Positions 13,912 to 54,826 of a stretch of DNA of 64,000 nt are shown here, piece after piece (the stretch's first letter is position 1; each line of letters starts with the position of its first letter). Under the pieces are notes generated by a model that worked only from the letters and a program-made list of their open reading frames with translations, was not told the origin of the DNA and ran no database searches. Source of the DNA: Alphaproteobacteria bacterium (GTDB taxonomy: Bacteria; Pseudomonadota; Alphaproteobacteria; UBA7985). The stretch spans positions 663,133 to 727,132 of the forward strand of contig CBDDHH010000004.1 of NCBI GenBank assembly GCA_965228345.1, read 5' to 3'. The translations under genes were made by a program, and so were the position numbers.

Positions 13912-14086
13912 CTCTTTTATTCGCTGGTATAAGGGCCGCGACTGCGGCCCCCGTAGCGGCCCCGAGATCGGCGCGAAAGCGCCTCGGGGTATAAGCGAAG
14001 GCCCCGTCGGAGGCGAAACGCATCGCGTTTCTGCCGTGAGACACGAAACGGCCATGAGAAGGTCACTTTTTATGACCGTTGGTATA
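13889..14086 (-). mobile_element. MITE copy R4
   Basis: CTATACCAGCGGCGATTTAAAATGACTC...GACCGTTGGTATAAG. Overlaps the rsmD 3' end. Confidence 0.8.
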
Positions 14087-27661: not shown

Positions 27662-27887
27662 ATACCAACTCCGCTAAAAATTGACATTTTTAGCGGAGTT
27701 TTGTCTCACGGCAGAAACGCGTTGCGTTTCGGCTTTTGGGGTTGCGGTCTCACCTCGCTCGCTCAGCCCGACCGCGCCTTCGCTTATACCCCGAGGCGCT
27801 TTCTTAGCTCATCTCGGGGCCGCTACGGGGCCGCAGTCGCGGCCCTATACCAGTTCATAAAGAGTCTGTTTTAAGGAGAACTGGTAT
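27662..27887 (+). mobile_element. MITE copy R5 (variant with CTCGCTCGCTCAGCC segment and alternate terminal hairpin)
   Basis: CTTATACCAACTCCGCTAAAAATTGACATTTTTAGCGGAG...ATACCAGTTCATAAAGAGTCTGTTTTAAGGAGAACTGGTATTAG. Confidence 0.75.
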
Positions 27888-30996: not shown

Positions 30997-31000
30997 GCTT

Positions 31001-31160
31001 ATACCAGTTTTTATAAATGGTGACCCATTCATGAAGATTTTTGATGTCACGGCAGAAACGCTTCGCGTTTCGCCTCCCCTTCGCTTATGCCACGAGGCAC
31101 TTTCTTAGCTATTCTCGGGGCTGCTACGGGGGCCGCAGTCGCGGCCCTTATACCAGCGGC
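31001..31160 (+). mobile_element. MITE copy R6 (variant left end ATACCAGTTTTTATAAATGGTGACCC), merging into the IS630-family left terminus
   Basis: Shares the GGCAGAAACGCTTCGCGTTTCGCC and GGGGGCCGCAGTCGCGGCCC hairpins. Its right end is the TTATACCAGCGGCGG sequence that also begins the adjacent IS630 remnant. Confidence 0.65.
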
Positions 31161-31460
31161 GGTAGCTTTTGACTCGTAGAAGTGTTTTTTCAACTAGGTC
31201 GTATTGTGATTCGTATTTCCCGCAAACAGGAGATACCTATGGCCATAGCAATCACACGCGCAAACCATAGCGCTAAGGATTTAAGAAAGTTTGCAGCGCG
31301 GAGTAAGGATCCCAAAGTTTCGCGCCGGGTACTAGCCATAGCGATGCTTATTGAGGGTAGTTCTTGTAAGTTTGCCGGTGAATGCTACGGCATGGATCGC
31401 CAAACACTTTGTGATTGGGTTCATCGTTACAATCTCGAACAGCCCTCTGCATAAGGAAGG
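31150..31460 (+). mobile_element. IS630-family IS remnant: left TIR + truncated transposase N-terminus (HTH)
   Basis: ORF 31239..31454 MAIAITRANHSAKDLRKFAARSKDPKVSRRVLAIAMLIEGSSCKFAGECYGMDRQTLCDWVHRYNLEQ matches IS630-family N-terminal HTH regions. Preceded by ATACCAGCGGCGGTAGCTTTTGACTC, which resembles the MITE TIR. Confidence 0.65.
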
Positions 31461-31506
31461 TTTCCAATTCAGGATTCCCGGCGATTGGGGGATGTGCTAT
31501 GTATTT

Positions 31507-31746
31507 GAGACCAGCGGCGATTTAAAATGACTCTTTTATTCGCTGGTATAAGGGCCGCGACTGCGGCCCCCGTAGCGGGCTCCAAGCCCGAAGGGCGTAG
31601 GGAACGCCTGCGCCAAAAACAAGCGGCCCCGAGATGAGCTAAGAAAGCGCCTCGGGGTATAAGCGAAGGGGCGGCGAAACGCGAAGCGTTTCTGCCGTGA
31701 GACATAAAACGGCTGAAAAAGTGTCAACTTTTTTCGCCGTTGGTAT
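31507..31746 (-). mobile_element. MITE copy R7
   Basis: Near-identical to R2. ...GTGTCAACTTTTTTCGCCGTTGGTAT terminus. Truncates the IS630 remnant. Confidence 0.8.
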
Positions 31747-31839
31747 TGGTTTTTTGTTTCTTGACCCAAGAATGCTCTTGCCTTCGACACACTTTTGCCG
31801 TCGGTACTTTAGGTGTTCGAGATTTTGGTGGAGGACTGG

Positions 31840-32652
31840 ATGGCATTTGCCGCGCTCATGGTGAGTGCAGCTCTGGTCGCCGGATTTTTAGCGGGTCTGT
31901 TCGGAGTTGGCGGCGGGGCCGTCATGGTACCAGTTTTTTCTGAAGTCTATGTTTGGGGCGGGACCGACCCGATTGTCGCGCAGTTTGTGGCCGTGGGCAC
32001 GTCCTTGGCCGTCATTGTTCCCACATCTCTGCGCTCAGCGCGGGCGCATCTGGCGGCGGACAACATCGAACGCCATGTCTTGCGGACATATCTTTGGTTT
32101 GTACCGTTGGGCGTCGTTGGCGCGCTCGCCTTCGCCACCTCAGACTGGGTTAAGGGCACCCAGGTGTTGCGGTTCACTTTTGGCGTCACTGCCGCGCTGA
32201 TCGCCGCGTACATGCTGTTGCAAGCCAAGGAGGCTCGCCGGCGCGATACCGGACCCACGCCGCCGCTGACGCAAATTGGGGCGACTGTGATCGGTTTTCT
32301 CTCGCTCTTGATGGGCATCGGGGGGGGCCTTATGAACAACCTGTTTATGATAGTTCAGGGCACGCCGATCAAGCGCGCCATCGGCACCTCAGCGGCGGTC
32401 GGGACCTTGATCTCTTTACCTGGGGCGTTGGGATTCGTTTGGATTGGCTGGGGGACGGCCGGGCTGCCGCCCTTCACTTGGGGCTATGTCAACTGGCTGA
32501 CGGTTCTGCTCGTGATCCCGATCACCGTTCTTGTGGCTCCCAGGGGCGCACGCCTTACCCAGCGCTTACCCGAGGCCCTGACCTCCCGTCTGTTTGGCGC
32601 CTTTCTGTTTCTGGTCGGAACGCGGATGCTCTGGACCGTCTGGCACGCCTAG
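31840..32652 (+). CDS. TSUP (TauE/SafE, DUF81) family membrane transporter
   Basis: Two internal repeats with the GxGGG motifs (LFGVGGGAVMVP and LMGIGGGLMNN). GGAGGA Shine-Dalgarno 4 nt before the ATG at 31840. Confidence 0.7.
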   Translation: MAFAALMVSAALVAGFLAGLFGVGGGAVMVPVFSEVYVWGGTDPIVAQFVAVGTSLAVIVPTSLRSARAHLAADNIERHVLRTYLWFVPLGVVGALAFATSDWVKGTQVLRFTFGVTAALIAAYMLLQAKEARRRDTGPTPPLTQIGATVIGFLSLLMGIGGGLMNNLFMIVQGTPIKRAIGTSAAVGTLISLPGALGFVWIGWGTAGLPPFTWGYVNWLTVLLVIPITVLVAPRGARLTQRLPEALTSRLFGAFLFLVGTRMLWTVWHA

Positions 32653-33587
32653 TGGCCGCGGTGCGAGATTCCCATCCATATCTAAACTCCGTATTGGCAG
32701 CTTGGCGGGTACAGGATTTGTCGTGTCGGCTGCATGCCGAGCGAGAAAACAGAGTCTATGCCGTTGGCGCACCCGCGCGCTACGCCCTCCGTGCCCATCG
32801 TCCAGCCCTTCGAACATCGCGCCAAATTGAGGCTGAGTTGACTTGGATGGCGAGTTTGGCCGACCAGTCCTTGCCCGTCCCGCGCCCGGTCCTAACGCGG
32901 GCGCAGGCATTGGTGCTGGATCGCGATGGTCAGCTCTACTCCCTCGTCACCTGGCTGCCCGGGGCGCCGCTGGGTCGCGGACAGGCCCCGCTCACCCTAA
33001 CCGACCCCTTGGGTACGTTTCGTGCCTTGGGCCGCCTCTTCGCCCGCCTCCATGCGCTTACGCCGCCCGCCGATCTGGACCGGCCCCGCTGGGACACTTT
33101 GGGATTGGTCGGAGAGACGCCGCTCTGGGGCAGGTTTTGGGACCACCCCCACCTCAACCACAGTGAGCGGGACCTGCTATGCGCCGTTCGGGATCAAGCT
33201 CGGCGGGAACTGCAGGCGCTCAATCTGCCCATCCAGCTGATCCACGCCGACCCTTTGCAAGAAAACGTCCTCGTCGAGGGCGATCAGGTTGCGTTGATCG
33301 ACTTTGACGATTGCGCCTACGGCTATCCCCTGTTCGATTTGGCAACGGCGCTGGTGCAACGCCTCCCCGACCCAAGATTCCCCGATCTGCGCGACGCCCT
33401 GATAGAGGGCTATGGTGGCTGCGATCGTCGAGCTTTGGCCCTATTGTTCCTTGTGCGGTGTCTTACTTACCTTGGCTGGATCAAAGATAAGATGACCACG
33501 CCTCAGGGCCAGGCCATGTCGCAGCGCATCCTTACCCGTGCCGTAGGGCAGGCCAGGGCCTATGAAAAGGGCCAAAGTCCGATTTAA
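32652..33587 (+). CDS. Phosphotransferase (aminoglycoside phosphotransferase / homoserine kinase II-like) family protein
   Basis: Brenner motif HADPLQENVLV and IDFDDCAYGYPLFDLA of the APH/choline-kinase fold. Start uncertain (GTG overlapping the upstream stop). Confidence 0.6.
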   Translation: MAAVRDSHPYLNSVLAAWRVQDLSCRLHAERENRVYAVGAPARYALRAHRPALRTSRQIEAELTWMASLADQSLPVPRPVLTRAQALVLDRDGQLYSLVTWLPGAPLGRGQAPLTLTDPLGTFRALGRLFARLHALTPPADLDRPRWDTLGLVGETPLWGRFWDHPHLNHSERDLLCAVRDQARRELQALNLPIQLIHADPLQENVLVEGDQVALIDFDDCAYGYPLFDLATALVQRLPDPRFPDLRDALIEGYGGCDRRALALLFLVRCLTYLGWIKDKMTTPQGQAMSQRILTRAVGQARAYEKGQSPI

Positions 33588-34513
33588 CCCTGGCTTAGGT
33601 TACGGCGGTCTTGGAGCATAGTTGCAAAAGCTTCTTCCACGGGCGTCGGCTGGAAGTCGGGCAAGATCTGTTCAAAGTCTTCTCCTGCGACCGCGTGCGG
33701 GGTGCGCCAAAGGTAGGACATGGCGACGACCCCGCGCAGGCGCGGCGAGACGAGGCTGAGGAGTCGCATGAGCGGCCAAGGAAACCCCCTTAAGGTCAAG
33801 TCCCGACCCATGGCATGAGCGCTGCGACGACACAGGTCTTGTCCAGTTAAGGTGTATCCTGGAAACAGTACTTCGCGATGCCCCGTCTGCGCTCTTAGTT
33901 CTTGACACAAGCCGATGGCAGCGCGCGCCATATCGGGCAGATAGGCAAAGCTATGGTCAAGGCCTGTTGGCCCTGGGTAGGCAAAGCGGCCTTTGGCGAT
34001 ACCCTGGGTCATATAGGTATCAAACCAGTTCCCCGTTTGAACCCCTTCCAAAAAATCCCCACCCCGCAACAGCAGCGTCGAGACGGGGGCGGTCGCCAGC
34101 AGTTGATCGCAGGTATAGCGTACCTGGGCTAGGGTGTTGGACGGCGCTTTGCGCGTATCGGGACCGATGCGCGCGGGCATGGATGGACCGTAGGCATAGA
34201 GATTGCCGACCGAAAGCAATGGAAGATTCAGGGCTTGGCAAGCCGTCAAAACACTTTGGGTAAGCGGAACTAAAGATTTTTGCCACGCTTCGTAGGGCGG
34301 ATTGAGCGCGTTCAAAACCACGTCGGCCCCGGTTCCCGCCGCCGCAATGGCCTCGGGGTCGTGGGCGTCGCCCGTCGTGCGAACGAGGCCTGGGATCGCG
34401 GCGTCACCGTCCCAGGTTCGTGCCAGGGCGATCACTTCATGGTTTTGCGCGAGGGCGGCCTCAACGCTATGGCGCCCGAACCGACCTTTGGCGCCTAAAA
34501 TCAAGATCTTCAT
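33584..34513 (-). CDS. NAD(P)-dependent oxidoreductase, atypical SDR / NAD-dependent epimerase family
   Basis: MKILILGAKGRFGRH Rossmann motif at the N-terminus. ~309 aa. Confidence 0.7.
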   Translation of the reverse strand: MKILILGAKGRFGRHSVEAALAQNHEVIALARTWDGDAAIPGLVRTTGDAHDPEAIAAAGTGADVVLNALNPPYEAWQKSLVPLTQSVLTACQALNLPLLSVGNLYAYGPSMPARIGPDTRKAPSNTLAQVRYTCDQLLATAPVSTLLLRGGDFLEGVQTGNWFDTYMTQGIAKGRFAYPGPTGLDHSFAYLPDMARAAIGLCQELRAQTGHREVLFPGYTLTGQDLCRRSAHAMGRDLTLRGFPWPLMRLLSLVSPRLRGVVAMSYLWRTPHAVAGEDFEQILPDFQPTPVEEAFATMLQDRRNLSQG

Positions 34514-34608
34514 GGTGTTTCCTATTTGGGTAAGAGGGATCAGGCTCACGACTTAACCCACGAATTTTCGGATACTCATAGCCAAAATTTCAATCTATAT
34601 ATTCGTAA

Positions 34609-35526
34609 ATGAATAGATCATCTTTGCCGTGGCATCTGCTACAGAGTTTTTTGTCCTGCCTCGATCAGGGATCGCTGAGCGCGGCGGCGGCGCGCCTCAA
34701 GCTGAGCCAACCCACCCTTTCCCGGCACATTCGCGAGCTGGAAACCTTAATCCAGGGGCGTCTTTTCGTCCGGTCCCGCCAGGGTCTTCAGTTGACCACC
34801 CTGGGGCTAGAATTGGTTGAACCTGCGCGCGCCATGGCCGACGCTGCGGCCCAGATCAGCGCCCGACTGTCGGGAGCGGGGGCGGAGACAAGGGCGAGCG
34901 TACGCCTTACCGCCAGCCAGTACATGGCGACATTCTGGTTGCCCGAGATTCTCGTGGCCTTCCAGGCGCGTCACCCGCACATCCAGATCGAGCTGGTCGC
35001 CAACGATCAGACGCACAATCTGCTGCGGCGCGAGGCCGACATCGCGGTGCGCATGTTCCGGCCGACCCAAGATAGCCTGATCACACGGCACCTAGGCCAC
35101 ATCGATCTGTGCATGTTGACGACGCGCGCCTATTTGGCGACGCGCACGCCGCCGCAAACGCCCGAGGACTTGCGCGCCCATCGCCTGATTGGCGACGATC
35201 AACGCACCCTCATTATCGACGGCTTACGCGCCTATGGGTTGCGCTTTGGGCCCGAAGACTTTGCCTTACGTTGCGACGACCAAGTGACGGCGTTGCATTT
35301 GATCGCCGCAGGTGGGGGCATCGGTTTTGGCCAAGCGCGCCTTGCCGAGCGGTTTCCTAGCCTGATCGCCTTGCCCATCGGCGACGGCGCGCCGAAATTA
35401 CCGCTTTGGCTGACCGCCCACGAAGACTTGCGCAGCAATCGTGCCGTGCGGCTGCTCTATGACTTCTTGGCTGAGCAACTGGTTCAGGTGGTGATACCAG
35501 TTCTGCTTAACAAAGACTCCTTATGA
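34609..35526 (+). CDS. LysR family transcriptional regulator
   Basis: N-terminal HTH (LSCLDQGSLSAAAARLKLSQPTLSRHIRELE) plus LysR substrate-binding domain. Divergent from the oxidoreductase. Last ~10 codons are encoded by the MITE R8 terminus. Confidence 0.85.
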   Translation: MNRSSLPWHLLQSFLSCLDQGSLSAAAARLKLSQPTLSRHIRELETLIQGRLFVRSRQGLQLTTLGLELVEPARAMADAAAQISARLSGAGAETRASVRLTASQYMATFWLPEILVAFQARHPHIQIELVANDQTHNLLRREADIAVRMFRPTQDSLITRHLGHIDLCMLTTRAYLATRTPPQTPEDLRAHRLIGDDQRTLIIDGLRAYGLRFGPEDFALRCDDQVTALHLIAAGGGIGFGQARLAERFPSLIALPIGDGAPKLPLWLTAHEDLRSNRAVRLLYDFLAEQLVQVVIPVLLNKDSL

Positions 35527-35687
35527 ACTGGTGTAGGGCCGCGACTGCGGCCCCCGCAGCGGCCCCGAGACAAGCTAAGAAAGCGCCTCGGGGTATCAGC
35601 CAAGGCCCCGTCGGAGGCGAAACGCGAAGCGTTTCTGCCGTGAGACATAAAACGGCTGAAAATGTCAATTTTTAGCGGAGTTGGTAT
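35494..35687 (-). mobile_element. MITE copy R8
   Basis: ATACCAGTTCTGCTTAACAAAGACTCCTTATGAACTGGTGTAGGGCCGCGACTGCGG...GGAGTTGGTATTAG. Overlaps the LysR 3' end. Confidence 0.8.
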
Positions 35688-35689
35688 TA

Positions 35690-36302
35690 GGGTCCGTGGA
35701 CATTAGGGATTCCCATTTCTGCAAACTTGTGTTTCAAGCTTCCAAAACGGAGGTTTCAATGAACACAGATCGCTTTGTTGTCACAGATCAACTCTGGGAT
35801 AGGATTTCAGGGTTGATTCCAGGCCGCGATGGGGTTCGCGGTGTTACTGGAGAAGATAATCGTCTCTTCTTGGAGGCTGTGCTTTGGCGGGTGCGTGCAG
35901 GGCTCCCTTGGCGAGACTTGCCGCCAGAATTTGGCAAGTGGAATACTCAATTTCGCCGTTTCCGTCGATGGGCCGCAGCAGGTGTTTTTGAGAGACTTTT
36001 TGAAGCTCTAAACCAAGACCCCGACGTTGAATACGCTCTTATCGACGGCACTATGTTAAGCGTTCACCAGAAAGCCAGTGGCGCAAAAGGGGGGCTCAAA
36101 ATCAGTCCATTGGACGTTCAAGAGGTGGATTGACGACCAAGATCGTTGCCTTGGTTGAGGGCTTAGGGAACCTGGCCCGCTTCCTTCTGTTGCCTGGTCA
36201 AGCCCATGATATGCAAGGGGTCAAGCCACTCATAGAGGGCGTCTGTTTTGATGCTCTATTGGCTGACAAGGCTTTCGATGCAGACTGGCTTCTCGAAGAC
36301 TT
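35690..36302 (+). mobile_element. IS5-family (IS427-group) element, 3'-truncated: orfA (35759..36133) and N-terminal part of frameshifted orfB (36130..36300)
   Basis: orfA MNTDRFVVTDQLWDRISGLIPGRDGVRGVTGEDNRLFLEAVLWRVRAGLPWRDLPPEFGKWNTQFRRFRRWAAAGVFERLF (DUF4096-type). orfB fragment ...LARFLLLPGQAHDMQGVKPLIEG...ADKAFDADWL. The 5' ~200 bp is near-identical to the 54827.. copy. Truncated by MITE R9. Confidence 0.75.
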
Positions 36303-36493
36303 ATACCAACGGCGAAAAAAGCTGACACTTTTTCAGCCGTTTTATGTCTCACGGCAGAAACGCTTCGCGTTTCGCCGCCCCTTCGCTGATACCCCGAGGC
36401 GCTTTCTTAGCTCATCTCGGGGCCGCTACGGGGGCCGCAGTCGCGACCCTTATACCAGCGAATAAAAGAGTCATTTTAAATCGCCGCTGGTAT
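36303..36493 (+). mobile_element. MITE copy R9 (inserted into or abutting the IS427-like element)
   Basis: CTTATACCAACGGCGAAAAAAGCTGACAC...AAATCGCCGCTGGTATTATG. Confidence 0.8.
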
Positions 36494-36695
36494 TATGCCC
36501 CAGAACTTAACCCAATGGAGAATGTTTGGGCATATCTGCGCGCAAATAAACTCGCCGTAACTGTCTTCGACACTGTTGAGCAGATCGTCGAAAAGTGTGG
36601 GGATGCCTGGAACTTCTTCACCAATGACAAACCGCCTCTCATGTCAATCACACAAAGAAATTGGATACGCGTCAATTGATCCCGCCGTTGGTATA
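36494..36695 (+). mobile_element. IS630-family IS 3' remnant: transposase C-terminus + right TIR
   Basis: Encodes ...YAPELNPMENVWAYLRANKLAVTVFDTVEQIVEKCGDAWNFFTNDKPP, the (Y)SPELNPIE..W..LK end of IS630/Tc1-type DDE transposases. Terminates CCGCCGTTGGTATAAG, identical to MITE termini. Confidence 0.6.
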
Positions 36696-36723
36696 AGACA
36701 CCCTAGACTTGCAAAAAGTAATG

Positions 36724-38163
36724 TTAGCTGCGCGCGATAGCGATGTTTTTTGTTTGAACGTAGTTCCAAAGCGCCTCGCGCCCTTTTTCGCGGCCATAGC
36801 CCGATTTACCATAGCCACCGAAGGGGGTTTCGACGCCGCCTGCAAACCATTCGTTTATAAAGACTTGGCCCGCGCGCAAACGACCCGCAATGGTCATGGC
36901 ACGATCCAGATCGCGGGTGAATACGCCGCCGACCAAGCCGTAGTCGGTCCCGTTGGCGATTTCCAAGGCTTCGCCTTCATGTCGGGCTTTCATGATCGAC
37001 AAAACAGGCCCGAACACTTCGGTGGTAGCGATTTCCATTTGGGGAGTGACGTCGGCAAACACAGTGGGTTGCAAAAAATGACCCGGGATGTTCAACTTGT
37101 GCCCACCTGCCACCAACCTTGCGCCCTCACTCTGAGCGCGCTGAATGAGGCCGAGGGCGCGGTCACACTGCGCATCAGAGATCAGGGCCCCCATATTGGG
37201 GCCAAAATCGGGACGGTCACGTCCAGGACCAACCGAAATCGACTTGGCCAAAGCACCTGCACGGGTCACCACATCCTCGTAGACGTCCTCCATCACAATC
37301 AGGCGCGATAGGGCCGAGCAAACTTGGCCTGCGCCGAAGATGAAACCCCAGCGCATGTCACTGGTGAGGGCGTCTAGGTCCGCGTCAGGATAGACGATCC
37401 CAGCCGATTTACCGCCAAGTTCTAAAACGCAAGGCACAACGTTTTGTGCCGCCGCCGTGGCAACTGCAATGCCCGTGGCAACCGACCCGGTAAAGACCAA
37501 CTGATTGATGCCTGCGTGACTCGCTAGAGCCGCGCCCGCGTCCTGTCCATGACCGCATATTAGATTAACTGCCCCCTTGGGCAACCCGACGGCCTCGGCC
37601 GCCAAGGCAAAGTACTTATGGGTCAGAGGGTCCAGCTCTGGCGATTTGACGACGCAGGCGTTGCCAGTGGCAAGGGCGGCAGAAAGCGAGCGCCCCGTCA
37701 TCTCCAATGGGTAGTTCCACGGGATGATCTGGGCGCTCACCCCCATGGGCTCATAGACCGTGAAGTCAAAGTATCCCTTGCCCAAAGGAATCGACCGCCC
37801 CTCCACAGTTTCTGCCTGGTTGCCGTAGTACTCAAAGTAGCGAGCTGTCCCCTCCACCTCGATCTGGGCTTCCCACAGGGGCTTGCCCGCTTCCTGAGTG
37901 AGCAAGGGGGCGATTTCCGATACATGGTCGCGCAACCAATCGCCCATTTGGCGGACCATACGACCGCGATCGCAGGGACGCATGTCGGACAAGACGCCGC
38001 TTTCGTGACAGGCGCGCGCGGCAGCAACGCCCTGGTCTATGTCTGCGGCCAGCCCGCGGGCTTGGCGCGCGAAGACCTGACCCGTGCCAGGGTCCTCAAC
38101 GTCGATCCAGCCCCCCGAGCCCCCAACAAACTGCCCGTCGATATAATTCAAGTATTTATCCAT
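36724..38163 (-). CDS. NAD(P)-dependent aldehyde dehydrogenase
   Basis: ELGGKSAGIV (catalytic Glu) and ...FIFGAGQVCSALSRLIV (Cys) ALDH motifs. 479 aa. Confidence 0.85.
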   Translation of the reverse strand: MDKYLNYIDGQFVGGSGGWIDVEDPGTGQVFARQARGLAADIDQGVAAARACHESGVLSDMRPCDRGRMVRQMGDWLRDHVSEIAPLLTQEAGKPLWEAQIEVEGTARYFEYYGNQAETVEGRSIPLGKGYFDFTVYEPMGVSAQIIPWNYPLEMTGRSLSAALATGNACVVKSPELDPLTHKYFALAAEAVGLPKGAVNLICGHGQDAGAALASHAGINQLVFTGSVATGIAVATAAAQNVVPCVLELGGKSAGIVYPDADLDALTSDMRWGFIFGAGQVCSALSRLIVMEDVYEDVVTRAGALAKSISVGPGRDRPDFGPNMGALISDAQCDRALGLIQRAQSEGARLVAGGHKLNIPGHFLQPTVFADVTPQMEIATTEVFGPVLSIMKARHEGEALEIANGTDYGLVGGVFTRDLDRAMTIAGRLRAGQVFINEWFAGGVETPFGGYGKSGYGREKGREALWNYVQTKNIAIARS

Positions 38164-39235
38164 TGTGCGCTTCCCTAATCCAGTCGTGCAAGGCCTTGAT
38201 TGAGTGTTCGGAGTTGACGCCGTTCTTGGGGTCTAGCACAAGGGGCCCAGGCCTGTAGCCGCGAGACTTGAGCCCCCTTTGCACCGATTCGATCAGGCCG
38301 ATGTCTTCCGCAACGGTCGTTTCGCGATCCTGGATCGCCAAGGCGCGGATGACGTCGGATTCTTGGCCCCCAGGGGTGTACCATCCGCGTTTTAGCAGAA
38401 CGTGTCCAGGGTCAATCGGCTCCCAATGGTAAGTGTTCAGGACATTGCCTGGATAGACCTGGAACGACACTGTGGGCCAGAGGTACCAAGACGAATAGCA
38501 ATCCGCGTAGTCGTTGGCGTCGAGATCGACGGGATAGGTCATGTCAGCCAAATTCTGACATTCAGTCGTATGTCGTAGGCAGTAGCCCTGCGGTTGAATA
38601 TCGTAAGTCGCAGGCTTAACCACGCCTTGGGAAAAGGTCGGATGGTTGATCGTGCAGTGGTAGCACTCCGAATAGTTCTCTACCGACACTTTCCAATTAC
38701 AGGCCTCCTGCACCTCCACCCATTCCAGGGGTTTGAGTTCATCAATGTTGGGCACGAACGCCTTTAGCTGCGCGCGTACCCCAGGGAACCAGGCGTCCAT
38801 GGGCGCGGCTTCGGGGTCCAAATTGACAAAGAGGAAACCGTGAAAATCCTCCACCTGAACCGCGGTGAGGCAAATCTGCGTGCGGTCCAGTCCCACGACG
38901 GCTTTCAGGTTGGGACCCTTGAGCAGTTCGCCCGTCAACTTGTAGGTCCAGGCATGGTAGGGACAGACCAACACGGAGGCATGGCCGCTGCCCGCAACCA
39001 ACTGGTGCGCGCGGTGCTGGCAGACATTGTAGTAACAATGGATCGACATATCGCGGTCGCGCACGAGGATCAGAGATTCCCCCGCAACCTCCACCGTATG
39101 ATAGTCCCCTGGGCGTTCGATCACCGATTTGTGCGCGGCAAAGATCCAGGTGCTGGTGAAGACGCGCTCTTGCTCATGGGCCCAGGCTGTATCGGAGAGG
39201 TAGTAGCGCGGCTCGAGCGATGTGATCACACCCAT
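38156..39235 (-). CDS. Rieske (2Fe-2S) non-haem iron oxygenase alpha subunit (GbcA/CntA/choline-monooxygenase-like)
   Basis: Rieske motif CQHRAHQL...CPYHAW. Mononuclear-iron region with ECYHCTINHP. 359 aa. No reductase partner adjacent. Confidence 0.75.
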   Translation of the reverse strand: MGVITSLEPRYYLSDTAWAHEQERVFTSTWIFAAHKSVIERPGDYHTVEVAGESLILVRDRDMSIHCYYNVCQHRAHQLVAGSGHASVLVCPYHAWTYKLTGELLKGPNLKAVVGLDRTQICLTAVQVEDFHGFLFVNLDPEAAPMDAWFPGVRAQLKAFVPNIDELKPLEWVEVQEACNWKVSVENYSECYHCTINHPTFSQGVVKPATYDIQPQGYCLRHTTECQNLADMTYPVDLDANDYADCYSSWYLWPTVSFQVYPGNVLNTYHWEPIDPGHVLLKRGWYTPGGQESDVIRALAIQDRETTVAEDIGLIESVQRGLKSRGYRPGPLVLDPKNGVNSEHSIKALHDWIREAHNG

Positions 39236-40152
39236 GGCGATTGATCCTCCACATAGATTCCCAGGCGATGCCGCCGTTCATGGAATCGGTCTATATCCTC
39301 AATGGTCCTAGCGGGTGCTGCGGCAATGACAAAGGCCATGAGCGTCTCAAGAAAGGCCGTCAACGCCACGGTCGAGGTGAAAAACTGCGGGCCGCTAACG
39401 GGCACTTCAAATCGATGCTTCGCGTCAGTGAAGTGCGGGGCAGCGGGCGAGTCCGAGACGGCAATTAGATCCAGGCCTTGTTCGTGGGCTGCTGCCGCTG
39501 CCTCGACCACCTCGCGTCGGTAGGGCTTGAACGTCATGGCAATCAAGGTATCGCCCGCGCCCGCGCGCACCAGGCCATCGACGGGCTGGGAACCGTCGCG
39601 CGGCAAAGCGACAATATTGTCCAGGGCCATGGCCCCAAGATAGGCAAAGTTCAGCGCCACAGGATTGGCCATGCCAACGCCCAGAACGTAGACCTTGCGC
39701 GCAGCGAGGATGGTTTGCGCCGCCGATTGCAAGGCGGTGGTGGTGGCGCTAACCTCTAGCTGGCGCAGCGTTGCTGCAGCCGCGCTCAGCACCTCATACT
39801 TGAGCGTATCGAGCGTTCCCGCCGCCGTGCGCGCTTGCAAAGCCAAGGCCTGGCGCGAAGGTTGAAAGGACGCGCGCGCCAGGTGCGTCTTGAACGCCTT
39901 GAACCCATCGTACCCCAAGACGCGCGACAACCGCACGAAGGTATTGGGCGTGACGCCCGCCGCAGCGGCGGCCTCTCGCGTTGAGGCCAGTGAAACCCGA
40001 TCAGGATTTTCCAAGGCGTAGGTTGCCGCCTTACGCTGTTCTAAACTGAGATGGGGCAGCTGCGCCCGCAAAGAGTCTTGCGGCGAATTCGGGACGTTTG
40101 TGCTGTTCATGGTTGACGAGGGTACATTTGTACCATAAAACCTGCAAGTCAC
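39226..40152 (-). CDS. MurR/RpiR family transcriptional regulator (HTH_6 + SIS domain)
   Basis: N-terminal HTH LSLEQRKAATYALENPDRVSLASTREAAAAAGVTPNTFVRLSRVLGYDGFKAF. C-terminal SIS domain. Alternative start MNSTN at ~40110. Confidence 0.7.
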   Translation of the reverse strand: MTCRFYGTNVPSSTMNSTNVPNSPQDSLRAQLPHLSLEQRKAATYALENPDRVSLASTREAAAAAGVTPNTFVRLSRVLGYDGFKAFKTHLARASFQPSRQALALQARTAAGTLDTLKYEVLSAAAATLRQLEVSATTTALQSAAQTILAARKVYVLGVGMANPVALNFAYLGAMALDNIVALPRDGSQPVDGLVRAGAGDTLIAMTFKPYRREVVEAAAAAHEQGLDLIAVSDSPAAPHFTDAKHRFEVPVSGPQFFTSTVALTAFLETLMAFVIAAAPARTIEDIDRFHERRHRLGIYVEDQSPWV

Positions 40153-40215
40153 ATCGCGGTCCCTTTTTCAAACTTTGGACTCCACGATTGCAGAAGTGTC
40201 GCCCAAGAAAGGCAA

Positions 40216-42654
40216 GTGACTATGGCCGAACTCCCCTCGCACGCGCGTGTTGTTATTATCGGCGGCGGCATTATGGGCTGCGGCGTGGCCTATCATCTGG
40301 CGCATGAGGGTTGGACAGACCTGGTCTTGTTGGAAAAGGCCGAACTGACCTCGGGGTCCACTTGGCACGCGGCGGGGCAAATCACCCATTCCACCTCCTC
40401 CTACACCCTTGGGGCCTGCGTCGGATACAACATCGACCTCTATCGCACGGTTTTGGAACAAGAGACGGGCCAATCCTGCACGTGGCACGGCTGCGGTTCG
40501 CTGCGGCTTGCCTATACATCGGACGAGGTGGATTGGCTGCTGCAAACTCTTTCGGTGGGGCGCGCGCTTGGGTTTCCTATGGAACTGCTGACGCCCGCGC
40601 AAATTCGCGACCAGCATCCGTTCTATAAACTCGACGGGGTTTTGGCGGCGCTCCATACCCCCGACGACGGCCACGTCGATCCTGCGGGTCCTGCCTTTGC
40701 GCTCGAGAAGGGCGCGCGCCAACTGGGAACCAAAACGATCAAGCGCTGTTTGGCCGAGGCTGTTACGCAGCTGCAGTCGGGGGAGTGGCAAGTCACGACC
40801 AACAAAGGCACGATTCGGTGTGAGCATGTGGTCAACGCGGGCGGCACCTATGCGCGGCAAGTCGCCCTGACCTCGGGCTACGATCTGCCCGCCACCTCCA
40901 TGACCCACCACTATTTGGTGACCGACGCGGTGCCCGAGTTCCAGGATTTGCCCCGCGAATTGCCCGTAGTGCGCGATGATCGGCAGGTGTCGGGCTACAT
41001 AAGGATGGAGCAAAAATCGGGTCTGATCGGCATTTACGAAAAGACCAACCCCAATACAGTTTGGCAGGATTGGTGCCCGTGGGAAGCGGAAAACGAACTG
41101 TTCGAGGCTGACTACGACCGTATCATGCCTTGGCTGGAAAACGCCCTGGACCGCATGCCCGTTTTTGCCGACCTGGGCATCAAGCGCGAGGTCCACGGCG
41201 CCATCTCGCACCCGCCCGACGGCAATCCCCTGATCGGGCCGGCGCCAGGCCTGCAAAATTACTGGGTCAATGCCGGCTGCCAAATCGGGATTGGCTGGGG
41301 GCCAGGCCTCACGCGGGAACTGGCGCGCTGGATGGTCCACGGCGCGGCGGACCTGAACATGCGCGATTTTGACCCCCGCCGCTACGGCGCGTTTGCCGAT
41401 CGAACCTACCAGATCGAAAAAGCCAAGGAGGACTACGTTCTCCGTCACGAAATCCCCTTCCCCCATTTCAATCGCCATGCCCATCGCCCCGTCAAACCTT
41501 CGCCCCTCTACGAAGTTTTGAAGGCCAAAGGCGCGGTCTTCGAAGAAGTCTATGGCTGGGAACGCCCACGCTGGTTCGCCAAAAACGGCGTCGCTCAAGA
41601 GGATCACTACAGTTTCGGCCGCGCGCCATGGTTCGACTTGGTCATGGCGGAGGTCAAGGCCGTGCGCAAGGCGGTGGGCGTGATCGATATCTCTGCCTTC
41701 GCCAAGATTGAAGTTTCGGGCCCAGGGGCCTTGGCGCTGATCGACCGTCTGATTCCCAACCGCGTGCCCAGAGTGGGCCGGGTCGGCCTGACCCACATGC
41801 TCGGGAATTCGGGCCGAATTGAATTGGAAACAACGTTGGTGACCCTGGCTGAGGATCGCTTTTACCTCGTTTGCGCGGCCTTCTTTGAGCAACGCTTGCT
41901 CGACCATCTGACCAAGTATGCGAGCGGCGAAGACGTGACCATCGCCAACCTATCGGAAGCCTACGGCGCCTTGGCGCTGTCGGGCCCACGCGCGCGGGAT
42001 GTTTTAGGGCAAGTGACCGACCACAGCTTGGTCGCGCCCGCGTTCAAATGGCTGGACGCCAAGGAAATTCGCATCGCAGGCCAAAGGTGCTGGGCTTTGC
42101 GCCTGTCGTACGCTGGGGAATTGGGCTGGGAGCTCCATGTCCCCCGCGACGGCTTGGTCGCGGTCTATCACGCTCTTTCGCAAGCGGGCACCGCCCACGG
42201 ACTGACCGACTACGGATCCTTTGCCATGAACATCTTGCGCATGGAAAAAATGTTCAAGGGCTCGGGTGAGTTGACCAACGAAGTGACCCTGCCCGAGGCC
42301 GATGTCATGCGGTTTGTGAAGATGGATAAGGAAGCCTGGGTCGGCCGCGCGGCGACGGACGCGGCCCTGCGCGCACCGTTGCGCTATGTTTGTGTCTATT
42401 TGGAAATTGACAGCAATGGCAAGGCGGACGGCAACGGCGGCGAAACCGTCCTGATGGCGGGTCAAGCCGTGGGGTCGGTCTCCTCCATCGTCTATTCCCC
42501 AACCCTCGATAAGGGGCTCGCTTTTGCCTATGTAAGTCCCGAGGCCGCGCGCACGGGCCAAAGGCTGGAGGTCGTGATTATGAACGACCCGCGCCCTGCC
42601 GTCGTGCGCGATCAGCCTGCCTACGATCCCGCCAGCGAACTGCCACGCGCATGA
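40216..42654 (+). CDS. Dimethylglycine/sarcosine dehydrogenase-family protein (FAD-dependent oxidoreductase fused to GcvT-like folate-binding domain)
   Basis: VVIIGGGIMGCGVAYHLA FAD motif. ~812 aa, as expected for DMGDH-type enzymes. C-terminal aminomethyltransferase-like domain. Confidence 0.8.
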   Translation: MTMAELPSHARVVIIGGGIMGCGVAYHLAHEGWTDLVLLEKAELTSGSTWHAAGQITHSTSSYTLGACVGYNIDLYRTVLEQETGQSCTWHGCGSLRLAYTSDEVDWLLQTLSVGRALGFPMELLTPAQIRDQHPFYKLDGVLAALHTPDDGHVDPAGPAFALEKGARQLGTKTIKRCLAEAVTQLQSGEWQVTTNKGTIRCEHVVNAGGTYARQVALTSGYDLPATSMTHHYLVTDAVPEFQDLPRELPVVRDDRQVSGYIRMEQKSGLIGIYEKTNPNTVWQDWCPWEAENELFEADYDRIMPWLENALDRMPVFADLGIKREVHGAISHPPDGNPLIGPAPGLQNYWVNAGCQIGIGWGPGLTRELARWMVHGAADLNMRDFDPRRYGAFADRTYQIEKAKEDYVLRHEIPFPHFNRHAHRPVKPSPLYEVLKAKGAVFEEVYGWERPRWFAKNGVAQEDHYSFGRAPWFDLVMAEVKAVRKAVGVIDISAFAKIEVSGPGALALIDRLIPNRVPRVGRVGLTHMLGNSGRIELETTLVTLAEDRFYLVCAAFFEQRLLDHLTKYASGEDVTIANLSEAYGALALSGPRARDVLGQVTDHSLVAPAFKWLDAKEIRIAGQRCWALRLSYAGELGWELHVPRDGLVAVYHALSQAGTAHGLTDYGSFAMNILRMEKMFKGSGELTNEVTLPEADVMRFVKMDKEAWVGRAATDAALRAPLRYVCVYLEIDSNGKADGNGGETVLMAGQAVGSVSSIVYSPTLDKGLAFAYVSPEAARTGQRLEVVIMNDPRPAVVRDQPAYDPASELPRA

Positions 42655-43991
42655 GCCTGACCGATCTTTCCCCAGCTTATCCCACCCACGACGCAGATTG
42701 GGTTTCTGAGACCCATGCTGAGGCCTATGTCCAGTCTTGGTCAAAGCAGGGCATCCGCCCCCGGGTCATCGCAGGCGGCCAGGGGTCCTGGTTCTGGGAT
42801 TCCGACGGCAAACGCTACCTCGATTTTCAATCGCAGCTGGTCAATCTCAACTTGGGTCACCAACACCCCAAGATCGTCCAAGCCATCAAAGACCAGGCCG
42901 ATAAGCTGTGCTATATCGGCCCAGCCATGGGCAACGACGCGCGCTCCGAACTCGCGGCGCTGATCCGTGACATTACACCCGCCAATATCGTGAGCACATT
43001 CTTTACCACGGGCGGTGCTGCCGCCAATGAGACGGCGGTCCGTCTCGCCCGCCACTATACAGGTCGGCAGAAGATCATTGCCCGCTATCGTTCCTACCAT
43101 GGCGCCACGGGTGGCGCCCTGACGTTGACGGGGGACCCACGCCACCACTTAACCCGGGGGGACATGCCAGGGGTGGTGCGGATGTTCGACCCCTACCGCC
43201 GCGATTCCGCAGACCCCATTTATCAGGGCGGGCCGCACCTTGAGGAAATCCTCATGTACGAAAACCCCGAGACGGTGGCGGCGCTGATCTTGGAAACCGT
43301 CGTTGGAACCAATGGGATTTTGGTGCCCCCCGACGGCTATCTGCAATCTCTCGCCCAGGTATGCCGCAAATACGGAATCTTGCTGATTATGGACGAGGTC
43401 ATGGCGGGCTTCGGGCGCACGGGCAAGTGGTTTGCCGTGGACCATTGGGACCTGCAACCCGACATGATCACCGCCGCGAAAGGCATCAATTCGGGCTATG
43501 TGCCCCTGGGCACGCTGAGCCTCAGCGCCGACCTGACGCGCTGGTTGCACGACACGCCCTTCCCGGGCGGGCAAACTTATGCGGGCCATCCACTCGCCTG
43601 CGCCTCGGGGGTTGCCGCCATTCGGGCCATGCAAGCCGAAAGCGTTCTGGAGAACGCCGTCACAATGGGCTTGCTCATGCGCACCGAGCTTACAGCCATG
43701 ATTGATCGCCACCCCATCCTGGGCGAAGTTCGCGGCAAGGGCTTGTTCAATGGAATCGAGTTGGTAAAAAATCGGGAAACAGGGGAGCCATTGGTTCCCT
43801 TTGCCGCCAAGGGCGCGGCGGCGGCCCCCATGACGGCCATGATGGCCGCTGCGATGGATCGCGGACTTTACCTTTCATTCTTTTCTAACGTCATTCGTCT
43901 GACACCGCCGCTGAACATCAGCGAGGTAGACTTAAAGTATGGACTTGCGATTTTGGACGAAGTTCTGAGCGTAGGGGATCAATATGTTTGA
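42651..43991 (+). CDS. Class III (omega) aminotransferase, PLP-dependent
   Basis: LIMDEVMAGFGRTGKWFA and ITAAKGINSGYVPLG (PLP-Lys) motifs. 446 aa. Confidence 0.8.
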   Translation: MSLTDLSPAYPTHDADWVSETHAEAYVQSWSKQGIRPRVIAGGQGSWFWDSDGKRYLDFQSQLVNLNLGHQHPKIVQAIKDQADKLCYIGPAMGNDARSELAALIRDITPANIVSTFFTTGGAAANETAVRLARHYTGRQKIIARYRSYHGATGGALTLTGDPRHHLTRGDMPGVVRMFDPYRRDSADPIYQGGPHLEEILMYENPETVAALILETVVGTNGILVPPDGYLQSLAQVCRKYGILLIMDEVMAGFGRTGKWFAVDHWDLQPDMITAAKGINSGYVPLGTLSLSADLTRWLHDTPFPGGQTYAGHPLACASGVAAIRAMQAESVLENAVTMGLLMRTELTAMIDRHPILGEVRGKGLFNGIELVKNRETGEPLVPFAAKGAAAAPMTAMMAAAMDRGLYLSFFSNVIRLTPPLNISEVDLKYGLAILDEVLSVGDQYV

Positions 43992-44040
43992 TCGGAACCA
44001 AACGAAGACACATGGATGTGGGTCGTTCCATGATGCAGTT

Positions 44041-44238
44041 ATACCAACGGTCATAAAAAGTGACCTTTTCATGACCGTTTCGTGTCTCACGGCAGAAACG
44101 CTTCGCGTTTCGCCTCCGACGGGGGCCTTCGCTTATACCCCGAGGCGCTTTCGCGCCATTCTCGGGGCCGCTACGTGGGCCGCAGTCGCGGCCCTCATAC
44201 CAGCGATCATAAGAGTCATTTATAATTGCCGCTGGTAT
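44041..44238 (+). mobile_element. MITE copy R10
   Basis: ATACCAACGGTCATAAAAAGTGACC...ATTGCCGCTGGTATTAG. Its terminal TTA forms the folD stop codon on the opposite strand. Confidence 0.8.
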
Positions 44239-45098
44239 TAGAATGTCCACCCCAGTTCAACCTGACGGCGATGGGCCTTGAGCGCGTTTTGCATGAGCAT
44301 AGAGACCGTGACAGGGCCGACTCCGCCGGGGACGGGCGTGACCCAAGAAGCCATGTCCAGCGCCTCGTCCATCTTCACATCCCCGACAAGGCCGTCAGCG
44401 GTCTGGTTGATGCCAACGTCGATGACGGCGGCGCCGGGCTTGATCATGTCCCCGCCGATCAGCCCAGCCTTTCCCACCGCGACCACGAGGGCATCGGCAC
44501 GGCGGGAATGCGACGCAACAGATCGGGTCATATGGTGACAGACCGTCACCGTCGCGCCTTCCGCCACGAGCATGAGGGCGACGGGCTTGCCGACAATTTC
44601 TGAATGACCGATCATCACAACCTCCAACCCCTTCAGGGTCAGGCCCGTGGACTTGAGCAGTTCGACCGACGCCGCCGCCGTGCAGGGCAGCAGCGCATGG
44701 TCCCCATAAACGATATTGCCGATTGAGGCTGGGTTCATTCCCTCGACGTCTTTGAGGGGGTGAATCGCGCCTTGCAAGGTACGAGGGTTTAAGTGCGCAG
44801 GTACGGGACGCTGTAAAATAATACCTGTGACTTTTGGGTCATCGTTCATCGCCACCAGGCGCGCCTTGGCCTGATCCTGGCTGATATGACCGTTCCAATA
44901 CTGTTCGTCGAACGGAATGCCCACACGCTCGGCCAAGCGGCGCTGGTTACGAATATAAACTTTCACCTCCTCCACCGCACCAATAGCGATGGAACAGAGC
45001 TTCCCGATTGGGGGCAGCGCCACCAAGTCCGCTTGAACTTGTGACATAAGGCGGTCGCGCAGCGGGGCACCGCGCAGCAGTCGAGGGTCATGATCCAT
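44238..45098 (-). CDS. folD: Bifunctional methylenetetrahydrofolate dehydrogenase/methenyltetrahydrofolate cyclohydrolase
   Basis: ...IILQRPVPAHL...VVMIGHSEIVGKPVALML...VIDVGINQ...PVPGGVGPVTVSML are conserved FolD blocks. Confidence 0.85.
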   Translation of the reverse strand: MDHDPRLLRGAPLRDRLMSQVQADLVALPPIGKLCSIAIGAVEEVKVYIRNQRRLAERVGIPFDEQYWNGHISQDQAKARLVAMNDDPKVTGIILQRPVPAHLNPRTLQGAIHPLKDVEGMNPASIGNIVYGDHALLPCTAAASVELLKSTGLTLKGLEVVMIGHSEIVGKPVALMLVAEGATVTVCHHMTRSVASHSRRADALVVAVGKAGLIGGDMIKPGAAVIDVGINQTADGLVGDVKMDEALDMASWVTPVPGGVGPVTVSMLMQNALKAHRRQVELGWTF

Positions 45099-45109
45099 AG
45101 GAGCTTCTT

Positions 45110-45348
45110 ATACCAACGGCGAAAAAAGTTGACACTTTTTCAGCCGTTTTATGTCTCACGGCAGAAACGCTCCGCGTTTCGCCTCCCCTTCGCTGATACC
45201 CCGAGGTGCTTTCTTAGCTCATCTCGGGGCCGCGTGTTTTTGGCGCGGGCGTTCCCTGCGCCCTTTGGGCTTGGAGCCCGCTACGGGGGCCGCAGTCGCG
45301 GCCCTTATACCAGCGAATAAAAGAGTTATTTTAAATCGCCGCTGTTAT
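45110..45348 (+). mobile_element. MITE copy R11
   Basis: CTTATACCAACGGCGAAAAAAGTTGACAC...TTAAATCGCCGCTGTTATTAG, with an extra internal GC-rich hairpin. Confidence 0.8.
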
Positions 45349-45500
45349 TAGCGCAACTCTCAAGAAAGTTGACGCCTTTTGCGAACGTCCGCCGAGGCCA
45401 CGGGGAACCACGACTTGATGCCACAAGTATGGCCGCCGGACTCTGAACGTCCGCGCAACATAAGGATGACAGCGTCACGTTCCCAACCTAAACACACACT

Positions 45501-46622
45501 ATGGTTTCCTTTACCTTAGAAAAAACCGACGGACGGGCCCGGATGGGGCGCTTAGAAACGGTTCATGGTTCCATCGAAACACCCGTATTCATGCCGGTTG
45601 GGACGGCAGGAACGGTCAAGGCCATGACGGCGAGGTCGGTTCGTGCTACGGGCGCGCAGATCATTCTTGGGAATACCTACCACCTCATGCTCCGTCCTGG
45701 GGCAGATCGCGTGGAACGTTTGGGTGGATTGCACACTTTGATGGATTGGCCCGGGCCAATTTTGACCGACTCCGGAGGTTTTCAGGTCATGTCACTGCGA
45801 GGACTGCGGGACATGAACGAAGACGGCGTCACTTTCAAAAGTCACATCGATGGTTCCTTGCATCAACTAACCCCCGAAATTTCCATGGACGTCCAACGCA
45901 AACTTGATGCCACCATCTCCATGGCCTTTGATGAATGCACCCCCTACCCCGCGACCAAGGATCAAGCGGCAAAATCCATGGTGCTTTCCATGCGCTGGGC
46001 TAAGCGGTCGAAAGCTGCCTTTGTGCCGCGGCCTGGATATGGCTTGTTTGGAATCGTTCAGGGTTCCGTCTTTGCCGATCTGCGGCAAGAATCTATCGAG
46101 CGGATCTTGCCCCTGGAAACCGAGGGATTGGCCATTGGCGGATTGGCGGTAGGGGAGGGGCAAGCGCGCATGTTCGAAACTCTAGATGTCACGACACCGC
46201 GGCTGCCGAAGAACAAGCCACGCTATTTGATGGGCGTGGGAAAACCCGACGATCTGGTTGGGGCGGTTGCGCGGGGGATTGATATGTTTGACTGTGTATT
46301 ACCTACGCGTTCGGGCCGCACCGGCCAGGCCTGGACATGGCGAGGGCAAGTCAACGTACGCAATGCACGGCACAAAGACGATCCGCGACCCTTGAGCGAG
46401 GGATGCGCCTGTCCCGCGTGCCAACGACACTCGCGCGCCTATCTACATCATTTGACCCGCGCCGATGAAATCTTGGGGGCTATGTTGCTGACTTGGCACA
46501 ATGTGCAGTTTTTTCAGGACTTAATGCAAGCGATGCGCGCGGCGATCAGCGAGGCATGCTTTTCCGAATTTGAAGCAAGCTTTGCCGCAACATATGGCAG
46601 TGGTGATGTAACGCCCATCTAG
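45501..46622 (+). CDS. tgt: Queuine tRNA-ribosyltransferase
   Basis: ...[18 protein letters not shown]..., DSGGFQV, and zinc site [17 protein letters not shown]. Confidence 0.9.
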
Positions 46623-46655
46623 ACAAGGCCCTCTAATCCAATCAAACGGGACTCT

Positions 46656-46895
46656 ATGGCTGATATCGACACAAACCAAGCCCGCCTAGGGGCCGCCCTC
46701 AAGGCCCTTGAACTACGGATCAGTGTGATGGCCAGCGGGGATCAGGCCATTGGCGCCGAAAACCAGAACCTGATCGCAAAAATTGAAACTTTGGAGGCCG
46801 AGATAGCGCGCTTGCGCCAAGTAGGCACCCAAGCCCTTGAGGAAATCGACGTGGTCCTTGACCACTTGGACAAATGGGAAGCGGACAATGGTTAA
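46656..46895 (+). CDS. DUF4164 coiled-coil protein (ZapA-associated, ZauP-like)
   Basis: 79-aa coiled-coil protein immediately upstream of and overlapping zapA, the arrangement conserved in alphaproteobacteria. Confidence 0.6.
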   Translation: MADIDTNQARLGAALKALELRISVMASGDQAIGAENQNLIAKIETLEAEIARLRQVGTQALEEIDVVLDHLDKWEADNG

Positions 46896-47229
46896 GGTGA
46901 CAGTTGAAATCAATGGTCGCGGCTATGATATGTTTGTCGACAAGGGACAGGAGGCCCATGTTCTACAATTGGGGGAAAAAGTGGGCCGACAGGTCAAGGC
47001 CATGATCAATCAAGTCGGTCAGGTTGGGGAAGGGCGCCTCATCCTCATGGCCGCCCTGCAATTAGCTGACGAAGCTTGGGAGCTAAAAGAACGGTTGCGA
47101 CAGCACGAAGGGGCCGCGACGCAGGCTCCACCCAACGCCGAACTTGTGGAACAGGCCCAAGCTTACGTCGCCGACGCCTATGGTGATTTAGCTGATAAGC
47201 TTGAAACCATGGTTGAAGCTCTCGGTTAA
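46888..47229 (+). CDS. zapA: Cell division protein ZapA
   Basis: MVKVTVEINGRGYDMFVDKGQEAHVLQLGEKVGRQVKAM... is a typical ZapA N-terminal domain followed by a coiled coil. Confidence 0.75.
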   Translation: MVKVTVEINGRGYDMFVDKGQEAHVLQLGEKVGRQVKAMINQVGQVGEGRLILMAALQLADEAWELKERLRQHEGAATQAPPNAELVEQAQAYVADAYGDLADKLETMVEALG

Positions 47230-47235
47230 ACCTGT

Positions 47236-50741: not shown

Positions 50742-51023
50742 ATACCAGCGGCAAGTATGAGTGACTCTTAATGTTCGCTCATATAGGGGCCGCGACTGCG
50801 GCCCCCGCAGCGGCCCCGAGAATAGCAAGAAAACGCTCATATTCTGAGGCCTCAGCGTAAATCAAAGAATTGAAAATTGACCACAAAATGTAGCGCCTAT
50901 CTCGCTCAAATGACACTACATATTGCGGCTCATTGATCCGAAGTTGAATTATGCTGAGGTCTCATTCCATTAGACAAGACACGAAACGGACATAAAAAGG
51001 TTATTTTTTATGACCGTTGGTAT
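50742..51023 (-). mobile_element. MITE copy R12 (divergent ~150-bp internal segment)
   Basis: ATACCAGCGGCAAGTATGAGTGACTC...GGGGCCGCGACTGCGGCCCCCGCAGCGGCCCCGAG...TTATGACCGTTGGTAT. Central part differs from other copies. Confidence 0.65.
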
Positions 51024-54790: not shown

Positions 54791-54826
54791 CAGGATTCCC
54801 TGAGAGGGGAGTTTTTGTTATTTTCT

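Follow-up and report, generated by a model that had tools for sequence, protein, structure and literature searches.

Stowaway-type MITEs (miniature inverted-repeat transposable elements) are mobilized in trans by IS630/Tc1-mariner transposases, and bacterial examples include RUP, paired with IS630-Spn1, and Nezha, whose partner is an IS630-like element. Insertion sequences (ISs) of the IS630-Tc1-mariner group target TA and duplicate this dinucleotide on insertion (PMC8533490), and an IS630 composite transposon, Tn630-NC1, has been described in Nitrosomonas communis (PMC11544213). Analysis of a 64-kb stretch of the alphaproteobacterial contig CBDDHH010000004.1 (hereafter the window) identified two remnants of an IS630-family IS, one in each of two MITE/IS clusters that lie either side of four host genes. 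On balance, these most likely represent two separate, now dead copies of a single IS630-family IS at rearrangement-prone sites. Pfam and NCBIfam matches back every gene and IS assignment. The features from the thiM/thiE fusion gene to the aldehyde dehydrogenase gene, with coordinates of the window, were as follows:

To 30996: thiM/thiE fusion gene, followed by TTA at 30999-31001
31002..31147, plus strand: MITE R6, old and diverged, with an IRR-like end and GC-rich core, without the terminal hairpin; left flank TTA, 2 nt past the thiM/thiE stop
31151..31439, plus strand: IS630-family 5' remnant, with left inverted repeat (IRL) TACCAGCGGCGG..., an 88-nt leader, and codons 1-67 (helix-turn-helix, HTH); corresponds to 1-289 in the 1159-bp element
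31440..31508: filler of other origin, 69 nt between the IS630 5' remnant and R7
31509..31745, minus strand: MITE R7, long form; first base G not T, flanks TGA and TTG, non-matching
31746..35494: host gene block, 3.75 kb, four host genes
31840-32652, plus strand: TauE/TSUP (Pfam)
32655-33587, plus strand: APH-type phosphotransferase (Pfam)
33584-34513, minus strand: NAD-binding epimerase-like (Pfam)
34609-35526, plus strand: LysR (Pfam), tail rewritten by R8
35495..35686, minus strand: MITE R8 with AGTT-type hairpin, inserted at TGA in the last LysR codons; flanks TGA and TTA, non-matching
35690..36300, plus strand: IS5-family (IS427-like) 5' part, the first ~610 bp of a ~850-bp element, comprising the left end (GGGTCCGTGG...), DUF4096, and the beginning of the DDE domain
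36304..36492, plus strand: MITE R9, complete and of the short form, flanked by a perfect duplication of TTA (36301-36303 and 36493-36495)
36493..36693, plus strand: IS630-family 3' remnant, starting with TTA; positions 959-1159, with the last 61 codons and right inverted repeat (IRR) ...CCGCCGTTGGTA
36694-36696: TAA flanking the IS630 3' remnant; the aldehyde dehydrogenase gene (minus strand) ends 27 nt further

Both remnants were mapped onto a 1159-bp full-length relative in the metagenome-assembled genome (MAG) OZ245893.1 (L001 9913-11071). This is the closest relative in the genome collection and carries two full-length IS630 copies (L001 and L002), each of 1159 bp with termini TACCAG...CTGGTA. 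The N-terminal fragment contained an HTH_23 match (Pfam, E=3.3e-7) and aligned to residues 1-67 of the full-length relative with 82% identity (tblastn, E 3e-30), and to IS positions 1-289 with 86.5% nucleotide identity. The reading of the C-terminal fragment begins at YAPELNP, which holds the E of the DDE triad, and matched model positions 258-298 of 299 in NF033545 (IS630 transposase; E 6e-8), the end of DDE_3 (Pfam, E 6e-4), residues 291-351 of the relative (84% identity; tblastn, E 2e-29), and IS positions 959-1159 (90% nucleotide identity). Because this one relative was by a wide margin the best for both fragments (82-84% amino acid identity vs. 63 and 57% for the next-best full-length match to the N- and C-terminal fragments, respectively), the remnants are assigned by sequence comparison to a single IS630 species, consistent with the first-pass annotation that treated them as fragments of one member. 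They lie in one orientation and carry terminal inverted repeats at both ends (IRL at 31151, TACCAGCGGCGGTAGCTTTTGAC; IRR at 36693, reverse complement TACCAACGGCGGGATCAATTGAC). The transposase of the relative, once repaired, scored 242 bits on NF033545 (cut-off 100) and is on this profile match an IS630-family transposase; no full-length match closer than 67% was present in the protein database. A full-length copy was not found within the 64-kb window, and neither fragment recurs there. In both OZ245893.1 copies (L001 10480-10495; L002) the HTH and DDE frames are joined only if the reading shifts by 1 nt within a run of six A (GATTTTAAAAAACTT), and the L002 copy has one more 1-nt difference in another A run. 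The frame shift in the A run could be programmed slippage or a long-read homopolymer error.

The window lacks the central 669 bp of the element (positions 290-958) including both catalytic D residues, according to both nucleotide mapping and tblastn. The left remnant keeps only the first HTH and the right only the third catalytic residue and the C-terminus; neither is a complete, potentially autonomous element, and neither is able to transpose or encode a transposase. The remnants are ordinary genome debris of little importance alone, as MITE clusters often contain truncated IS copies. At the left remnant, a 71-aa open reading frame (ORF; 31239-31454) reaches a stop codon at 31452-31454 because the reading frame enters foreign DNA past 31439. 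The HTH-only ORF retains a Shine-Dalgarno sequence and start codon and is annotated as a gene in the source annotation. Its truncated product formed a singleton cluster and a promoter scan around the ORF gave no promoter-like site. As a speculation, the 71-aa product might bind MITE/IS ends in a regulatory role.

The first-pass annotation had placed the N-terminal fragment at 31150..31460 and the C-terminal fragment at 36494..36695. Both were recovered within a few bases at 31151-31439 and 36493-36693, except that on the left the IS DNA ends at 31439 and the rest of that interval is foreign. It had also described a MITE-like left terminal inverted repeat. The motif is common to the MITEs, but the terminus at 31151 is the IRL of the IS itself, joined to the hairpin-less R6 at the internal TTA of the MITE. 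R6 is 73-86% identical to other copies, and its core ends in ...GCGGCCC followed by the conserved internal TTA at 31148-31150. The transposase N-terminus was not cut off by R7 as had been proposed, since the break lies at 31439/31440 and the 69-nt filler (31440-31508) intervenes. Filler bases 31441-31500 are 70% identical, without gaps, to 54762-54821 beside another IS-fragment cluster (alignment score 24 vs. 13.4 +/- 1.0 in shuffles), and reverse-strand translations hint weakly that the filler may derive from the interior of a minus-strand transposase gene of the IS5 family. Two native sources of the filler were considered, the DNA to the left of the orthologous MITE in OZ245893.1 and the TauE upstream region, and it matched neither.

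On the right, the transposase C-terminus with its terminal inverted repeat directly follows the complete MITE R9 (36304-36492, with the remnant from 36493), as had been noted from the sequence. The IS427-like fragment reported there was likewise recovered, as the first ~610 bp of a ~850-bp IS5-family element at 35690-36300 (117.6 bits on NF033580), and a 234-nt copy of the same IS427-like 5' end lies at 54830-55063. A full-length IS427-like copy was sought to fix the R9 junction, and the nearest was only 71% identical. R9 is flanked by IS5-family DNA on the left and IS630 DNA on the right, and its TTA is native on both sides, being an IS5 Leu codon (alignment to a Sulfitobacter relative) and IS630 positions 959-961. 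The perfect duplication with heterologous flanks therefore indicates that the 5' 958 bp of the right-hand IS630 copy were lost locally, right of the gene block, in which case the left-hand remnant would be a different copy. The window IS630 end and the OZ245893.1 MITE end past the aldehyde dehydrogenase gene were compared as a candidate shared insertion site, and the alignment was no better than shuffles. At the other end of this cluster, the R8 insertion replaced the final LysR codons (35495-35526), giving a protein of 305 aa ending IPVLLNKDSL vs. 299 aa ending TNAP in OZ245893.1.

The target duplication of the element was derived from an alignment of multiple full-length related IS630 copies from six MAGs (L001-L079). 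Identical TNA triplets flanked 47 of the 50 full-length copies with termini TACCA...TGGTA (chance match 0.37), and the central base varied between copies (TTA, TAA, TGA, TCA) while being equal on both sides; the flanks were exactly TTA/TAA in 3/50 intact copies. Eight of the 12 complete window MITEs also had identical TNA flanks, including one TCA/TCA pair. In the window the junction between the APH and epimerase genes (33583-33586) reads CCGAT-TTA-ACCCTGG, the unoccupied form of a TTA at which, in OZ245893.1 (L002 16545-16700; L080 8729-8980), both gene pairs exactly abut a MITE end. The gene pairs lie 680 kb apart in that genome and the MITE junctions are CCGAT-TTA-TACCGACGG... and ...CTGGTT-TTA-GCCCTGG, which suggests a MITE insertion at this TTA followed by MITE-mediated rearrangement. 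The empty-site comparison agrees with 3 bp, whereas a 2-bp TA model leaves five bases unaccounted for; the same comparison was attempted for the MITE at 27663, where the site was too diverged to decide. On these alignments the clade departs from the TA duplication stated for the IS630-Tc1-mariner group, and therefore the strict textbook fit to IS630 is lowered while the protein-based assignment is unaffected. A literature search for 3-bp duplication in IS630 yielded only the general statement of TA and, for Sailor, a TATA. The TNA rule together with the termini TACCA...TGGTA is useful for marking element boundaries and spotting recombinant copies.

The same ends recur in the MITEs of the window. 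The motif TACCARCGGCR-N8-TGAC, with one mismatch allowed, had 17 matches vs. 0.01 expected, comprising the two IS ends and 15 MITE or solo-hairpin ends, such that the similarity of the terminal repeats to the MITEs is beyond chance. The family amounts to ~13 copies in 64 kb, with 12 complete non-coding copies (186-280 bp), the truncated R6, and some other fragments. Each MITE is built of an IRR-like end, a GC-rich core, an internal TTA, and then a 41-44-nt hairpin whose outer arm is IRL-like, while the core is without similarity to the IS interior. Two hairpin types occur, and both are also found alone and in tandem beside MITE ends. An IS630-MITE partnership is well supported by these sequence features, and the link between IS and MITE family suggested by the first-pass annotation holds because the ends and the 3-bp TNA duplication are common to both, and not because of the supposed split of the IS. 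Mobilization of the MITEs by this IS630 transposase is a plausible corollary. R7 is 99% identical to the MITE copy at 1540-1776, suggesting recent movement.

The interval between the remnants contains four genes (TauE, APH, NAD-binding epimerase-like, and LysR) rather than the five initially counted, and their G+C content of 57-65% resembles that of the flanks while the MITE/IS clusters drop to 51%. Four blocks of the window aligned to separate regions of OZ245893.1:

15971-28413: OZ245893.1 at 2.50 Mb
31746-33586: OZ245893.1 at 1.685 Mb
33583-35494: OZ245893.1 at 2.37 Mb
36730-48121: OZ245893.1 at 2.44 Mb

Every synteny break between the two genomes falls at a MITE/IS cluster in one or the other, and both remnant-bearing clusters coincide with such breaks. 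The window is a worked example of such clusters marking synteny breaks between close relatives. Synteny of the 31.8-35.5 kb block with OZ245893.1 held for each gene pair but not for the whole, as the orthologues lie at two separate loci in non-IS contexts, outside any IS630-bounded unit; the APH-epimerase junction within the block is a clean empty site. In OZ245893.1 TauE-APH adjoin orf92 and CMD, with neither an IS630 nor a MITE end between TauE and CMD, and epimerase-LysR adjoin SnoaL without a MITE after LysR. The full-length IS630 copy 3.6 kb upstream of TauE in that genome was considered as a shared copy and rejected, as its left flank and the intervening genes are unrelated to the window. 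In four more distant contigs the aldehyde dehydrogenase gene is directly followed by CMD-PNP(-HADH)-MR_MLE. This order (kept in L085 and L087-L090) is broken in both close genomes. The CMD group adjoins TauE-APH in OZ245893.1, while in the window the aldehyde dehydrogenase gene adjoins the LysR end of the block. Because the distant contigs join aldehyde dehydrogenase to CMD while the four genes now sit at that junction, the four genes may be a lineage-specific islet at the old aldehyde dehydrogenase-CMD junction. On the other side, orthologues of thiM/thiE and the neighboring gene were not found in OZ245893.1 at 90% identity, and thiM/thiE and the aldehyde dehydrogenase gene are not neighbors in OZ245893.1 or in any outgroup contig examined.

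The mapping, breakpoints, shared termini, 3-bp TNA rule, and synteny breaks are shown by the sequences, whereas the succession of events and how many copies there originally were are inferred. In the favored history the left copy (A) would have entered R6 at the internal TTA of the MITE family and later lost everything past position 289. The break (31439/31440) is not of transpositional origin and now adjoins the scrap of another element and then R7. The right copy (B) would have inserted at the TAA that lies 27 nt beyond the end of the aldehyde dehydrogenase gene and then lost positions 1-958, most simply by recombination of two direct MITEs, one in the IS5-family TTA and one in the IS630 TTA at 959, or alternatively by a deletion at TTA microhomology, after which R9 inserted. 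Nested insertion with recombination or deletion describes both clusters, the first-pass annotation having offered recombination or nested insertion as alternatives, and the non-matching flanks of R7 and R8 around the genes fit MITE-MITE recombination. Two copies explain the data with the fewest events. Several observations nevertheless weigh against this history. The pieces have the geometry of a split element, with the same orientation, the 5' piece upstream, the 3' piece downstream, and both outer ends intact, and two random one-ended remnants would give such a geometry in only ~1 in 8 cases. The difference between the outer flanks, TTA (31148-31150) and TAA (36694-36696), is a single base that could be a later mutation and is also seen in 3/50 intact copies. 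Moreover, the copy number was judged on full-length copies from other genomes, and this history gives no detailed account of the hairpin missing from R6 or of where the 69-nt filler came from.

The same geometry of complementary, like-oriented pieces with intact outer ends is what a single IS630 copy would leave if its halves had been separated by rearrangement, through either MITE recombination or a MITE-bounded R7...R9 insertion bringing the four genes, with deletion of the middle. R7 and R9 lie in inverted orientation, the outer ends of their hairpins are almost identical, 31509-36492 resembles a MITE-bounded unit, and the right end of this putative unit sits in a TTA native to IS630. However, positions 289 and 959 do not abut and the halves meet at no single coordinate, 669 bp being missing between them, while the left side of the unit abuts the filler instead of IS630 position 958. 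Neither the unit flanks (TGA/TTA) nor the IS flanks (TTA/TAA) match; because 94% of intact copies match, the latter mismatch favors independent origins by about ten-fold, a figure that falls to two- to four-fold if an old duplication may have mutated later. As thiM/thiE and aldehyde dehydrogenase are neighbors nowhere among OZ245893.1 and the outgroup contigs, one copy with both flanks needs an extra rearrangement, and altogether at least three more events than two copies. In addition, the interval is not all mobile DNA, 3.75 kb being four host-like genes with chromosomal orthologues. Together with the heterologous flanks of R9, these points make it unlikely that the pieces are halves of one element, and the window illustrates that complementary same-orientation IS fragments need not be so. 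Two direct IS630 copies could instead have moved the four genes as a unit beside the aldehyde dehydrogenase gene, as a composite transposon whose inner parts have since decayed. The outer ends (IRL 31151 and IRR 36693) are intact, correctly inverted, and bracket the cargo, the IRR lies 27 nt from the aldehyde dehydrogenase stop, the four genes look like an islet at the ancestral aldehyde dehydrogenase-CMD junction, and Tn630-NC1 (PMC11544213) is a precedent for a composite transposon of IS630 type carrying four cargo genes. This is, if anything, slightly less likely again, since the flanks of the unit differ (TTA vs. TAA), its left neighbor is thiM/thiE-R6 and not CMD, the cargo has host-like G+C content and occupies two OZ245893.1 loci with no IS630 ends around (orf92 and CMD beside TauE-APH, SnoaL beside epimerase-LysR), and neither a second copy of the unit nor an empty site was found. 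The more specific proposal that 31151-36693 (5.5 kb) is a decayed Tn630-like transposon of the TNA-making clade that delivered the four-gene islet to the aldehyde dehydrogenase-CMD junction is quite improbable. Finally, the source is a 965-kb MAG contig in which each odd junction lies at or beside a repeat, and homopolymer differences exist between IS copies in related assemblies, all of which would fit false joins at MITE/IS repeats. Such an assembly artifact is highly improbable, given that MITEs of just 190-240 bp offer little length for the misjoining of such large contigs, the 31439/31440 break and the IS5/R9/IS630 junctions are unique joins and not repeat collapses, and collinearity of the gene block with the relative extends across the APH-epimerase junction.

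Besides the two clusters, the window contains another IS cluster together with further MITEs and solo hairpins. Scans for Rfam families and tRNAs identified nothing relevant to the remnant region. The additional features were:

1089-1284, 1539-1775, 3978-4166, 13890-14084, 27663-27886, 44042-44237, 45111-45347, 50743-51022, and 58695-58880: further MITEs
1495-1535, 58884-58925, and 63600-63694: solo hairpins
54444-57500: second IS cluster, IS fragments
54444-54760, minus strand: IS5-like C-terminal fragment
54762-54821: 60-nt homologue of the filler
54830-55063: the 234-nt copy of the IS427-like 5' end
55115-56230, minus strand: intact-looking 371-aa DDE transposase ORF (tblastx 26-46% to DDE_Tnp_1 / DDE_Tnp_1_assoc genes in L084)
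From 56322: IS3-like fragment; its ALIL frameshift pseudoknot lies at 57162-57278 on the minus strand

Compared with known systems, the element resembles an ISAli3-like clade of the IS630 family in its HTH and DDE_3 architecture, length of ~1.16 kb, and terminal inverted repeats, with ISAli3 from Azospirillum lipoferum as the named match (58% identical). It differs in that the window keeps only positions 1-289 and 959-1159 and that the clade duplicates 3 bp (TNA), compared to the group-wide statement of TA (PMC8533490). The locus shares with Tn630-NC1 the arrangement of two degenerate IS630-family copies around four genes in ~5 kb. In contrast to that transposon, the copies in the window are direct, only 289 and 201 bp of them are left, their flanking duplications are unequal, and the cargo resembles host DNA and occurs in the nearest relative free of IS ends, with no evidence that the unit ever moved.

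The synteny breaks at MITE/IS clusters, heterologous MITE flanks, and nested, part-deleted insertions are the expected pattern of repeat-mediated rearrangement and IS decay in IS-rich genomes, from which no notable difference was identified. The MITEs are short, non-coding, and many, like those mobilized by IS630/Tc1-mariner transposases, and they match the IS in an 11-nt end with TGAC at a fixed distance and in the target duplication. They differ from such MITEs in being modular, with an unrelated GC-rich core and two hairpin types that are also found alone. Only the TNA duplication rule and this dense, modular MITE family are modestly notable at this locus.

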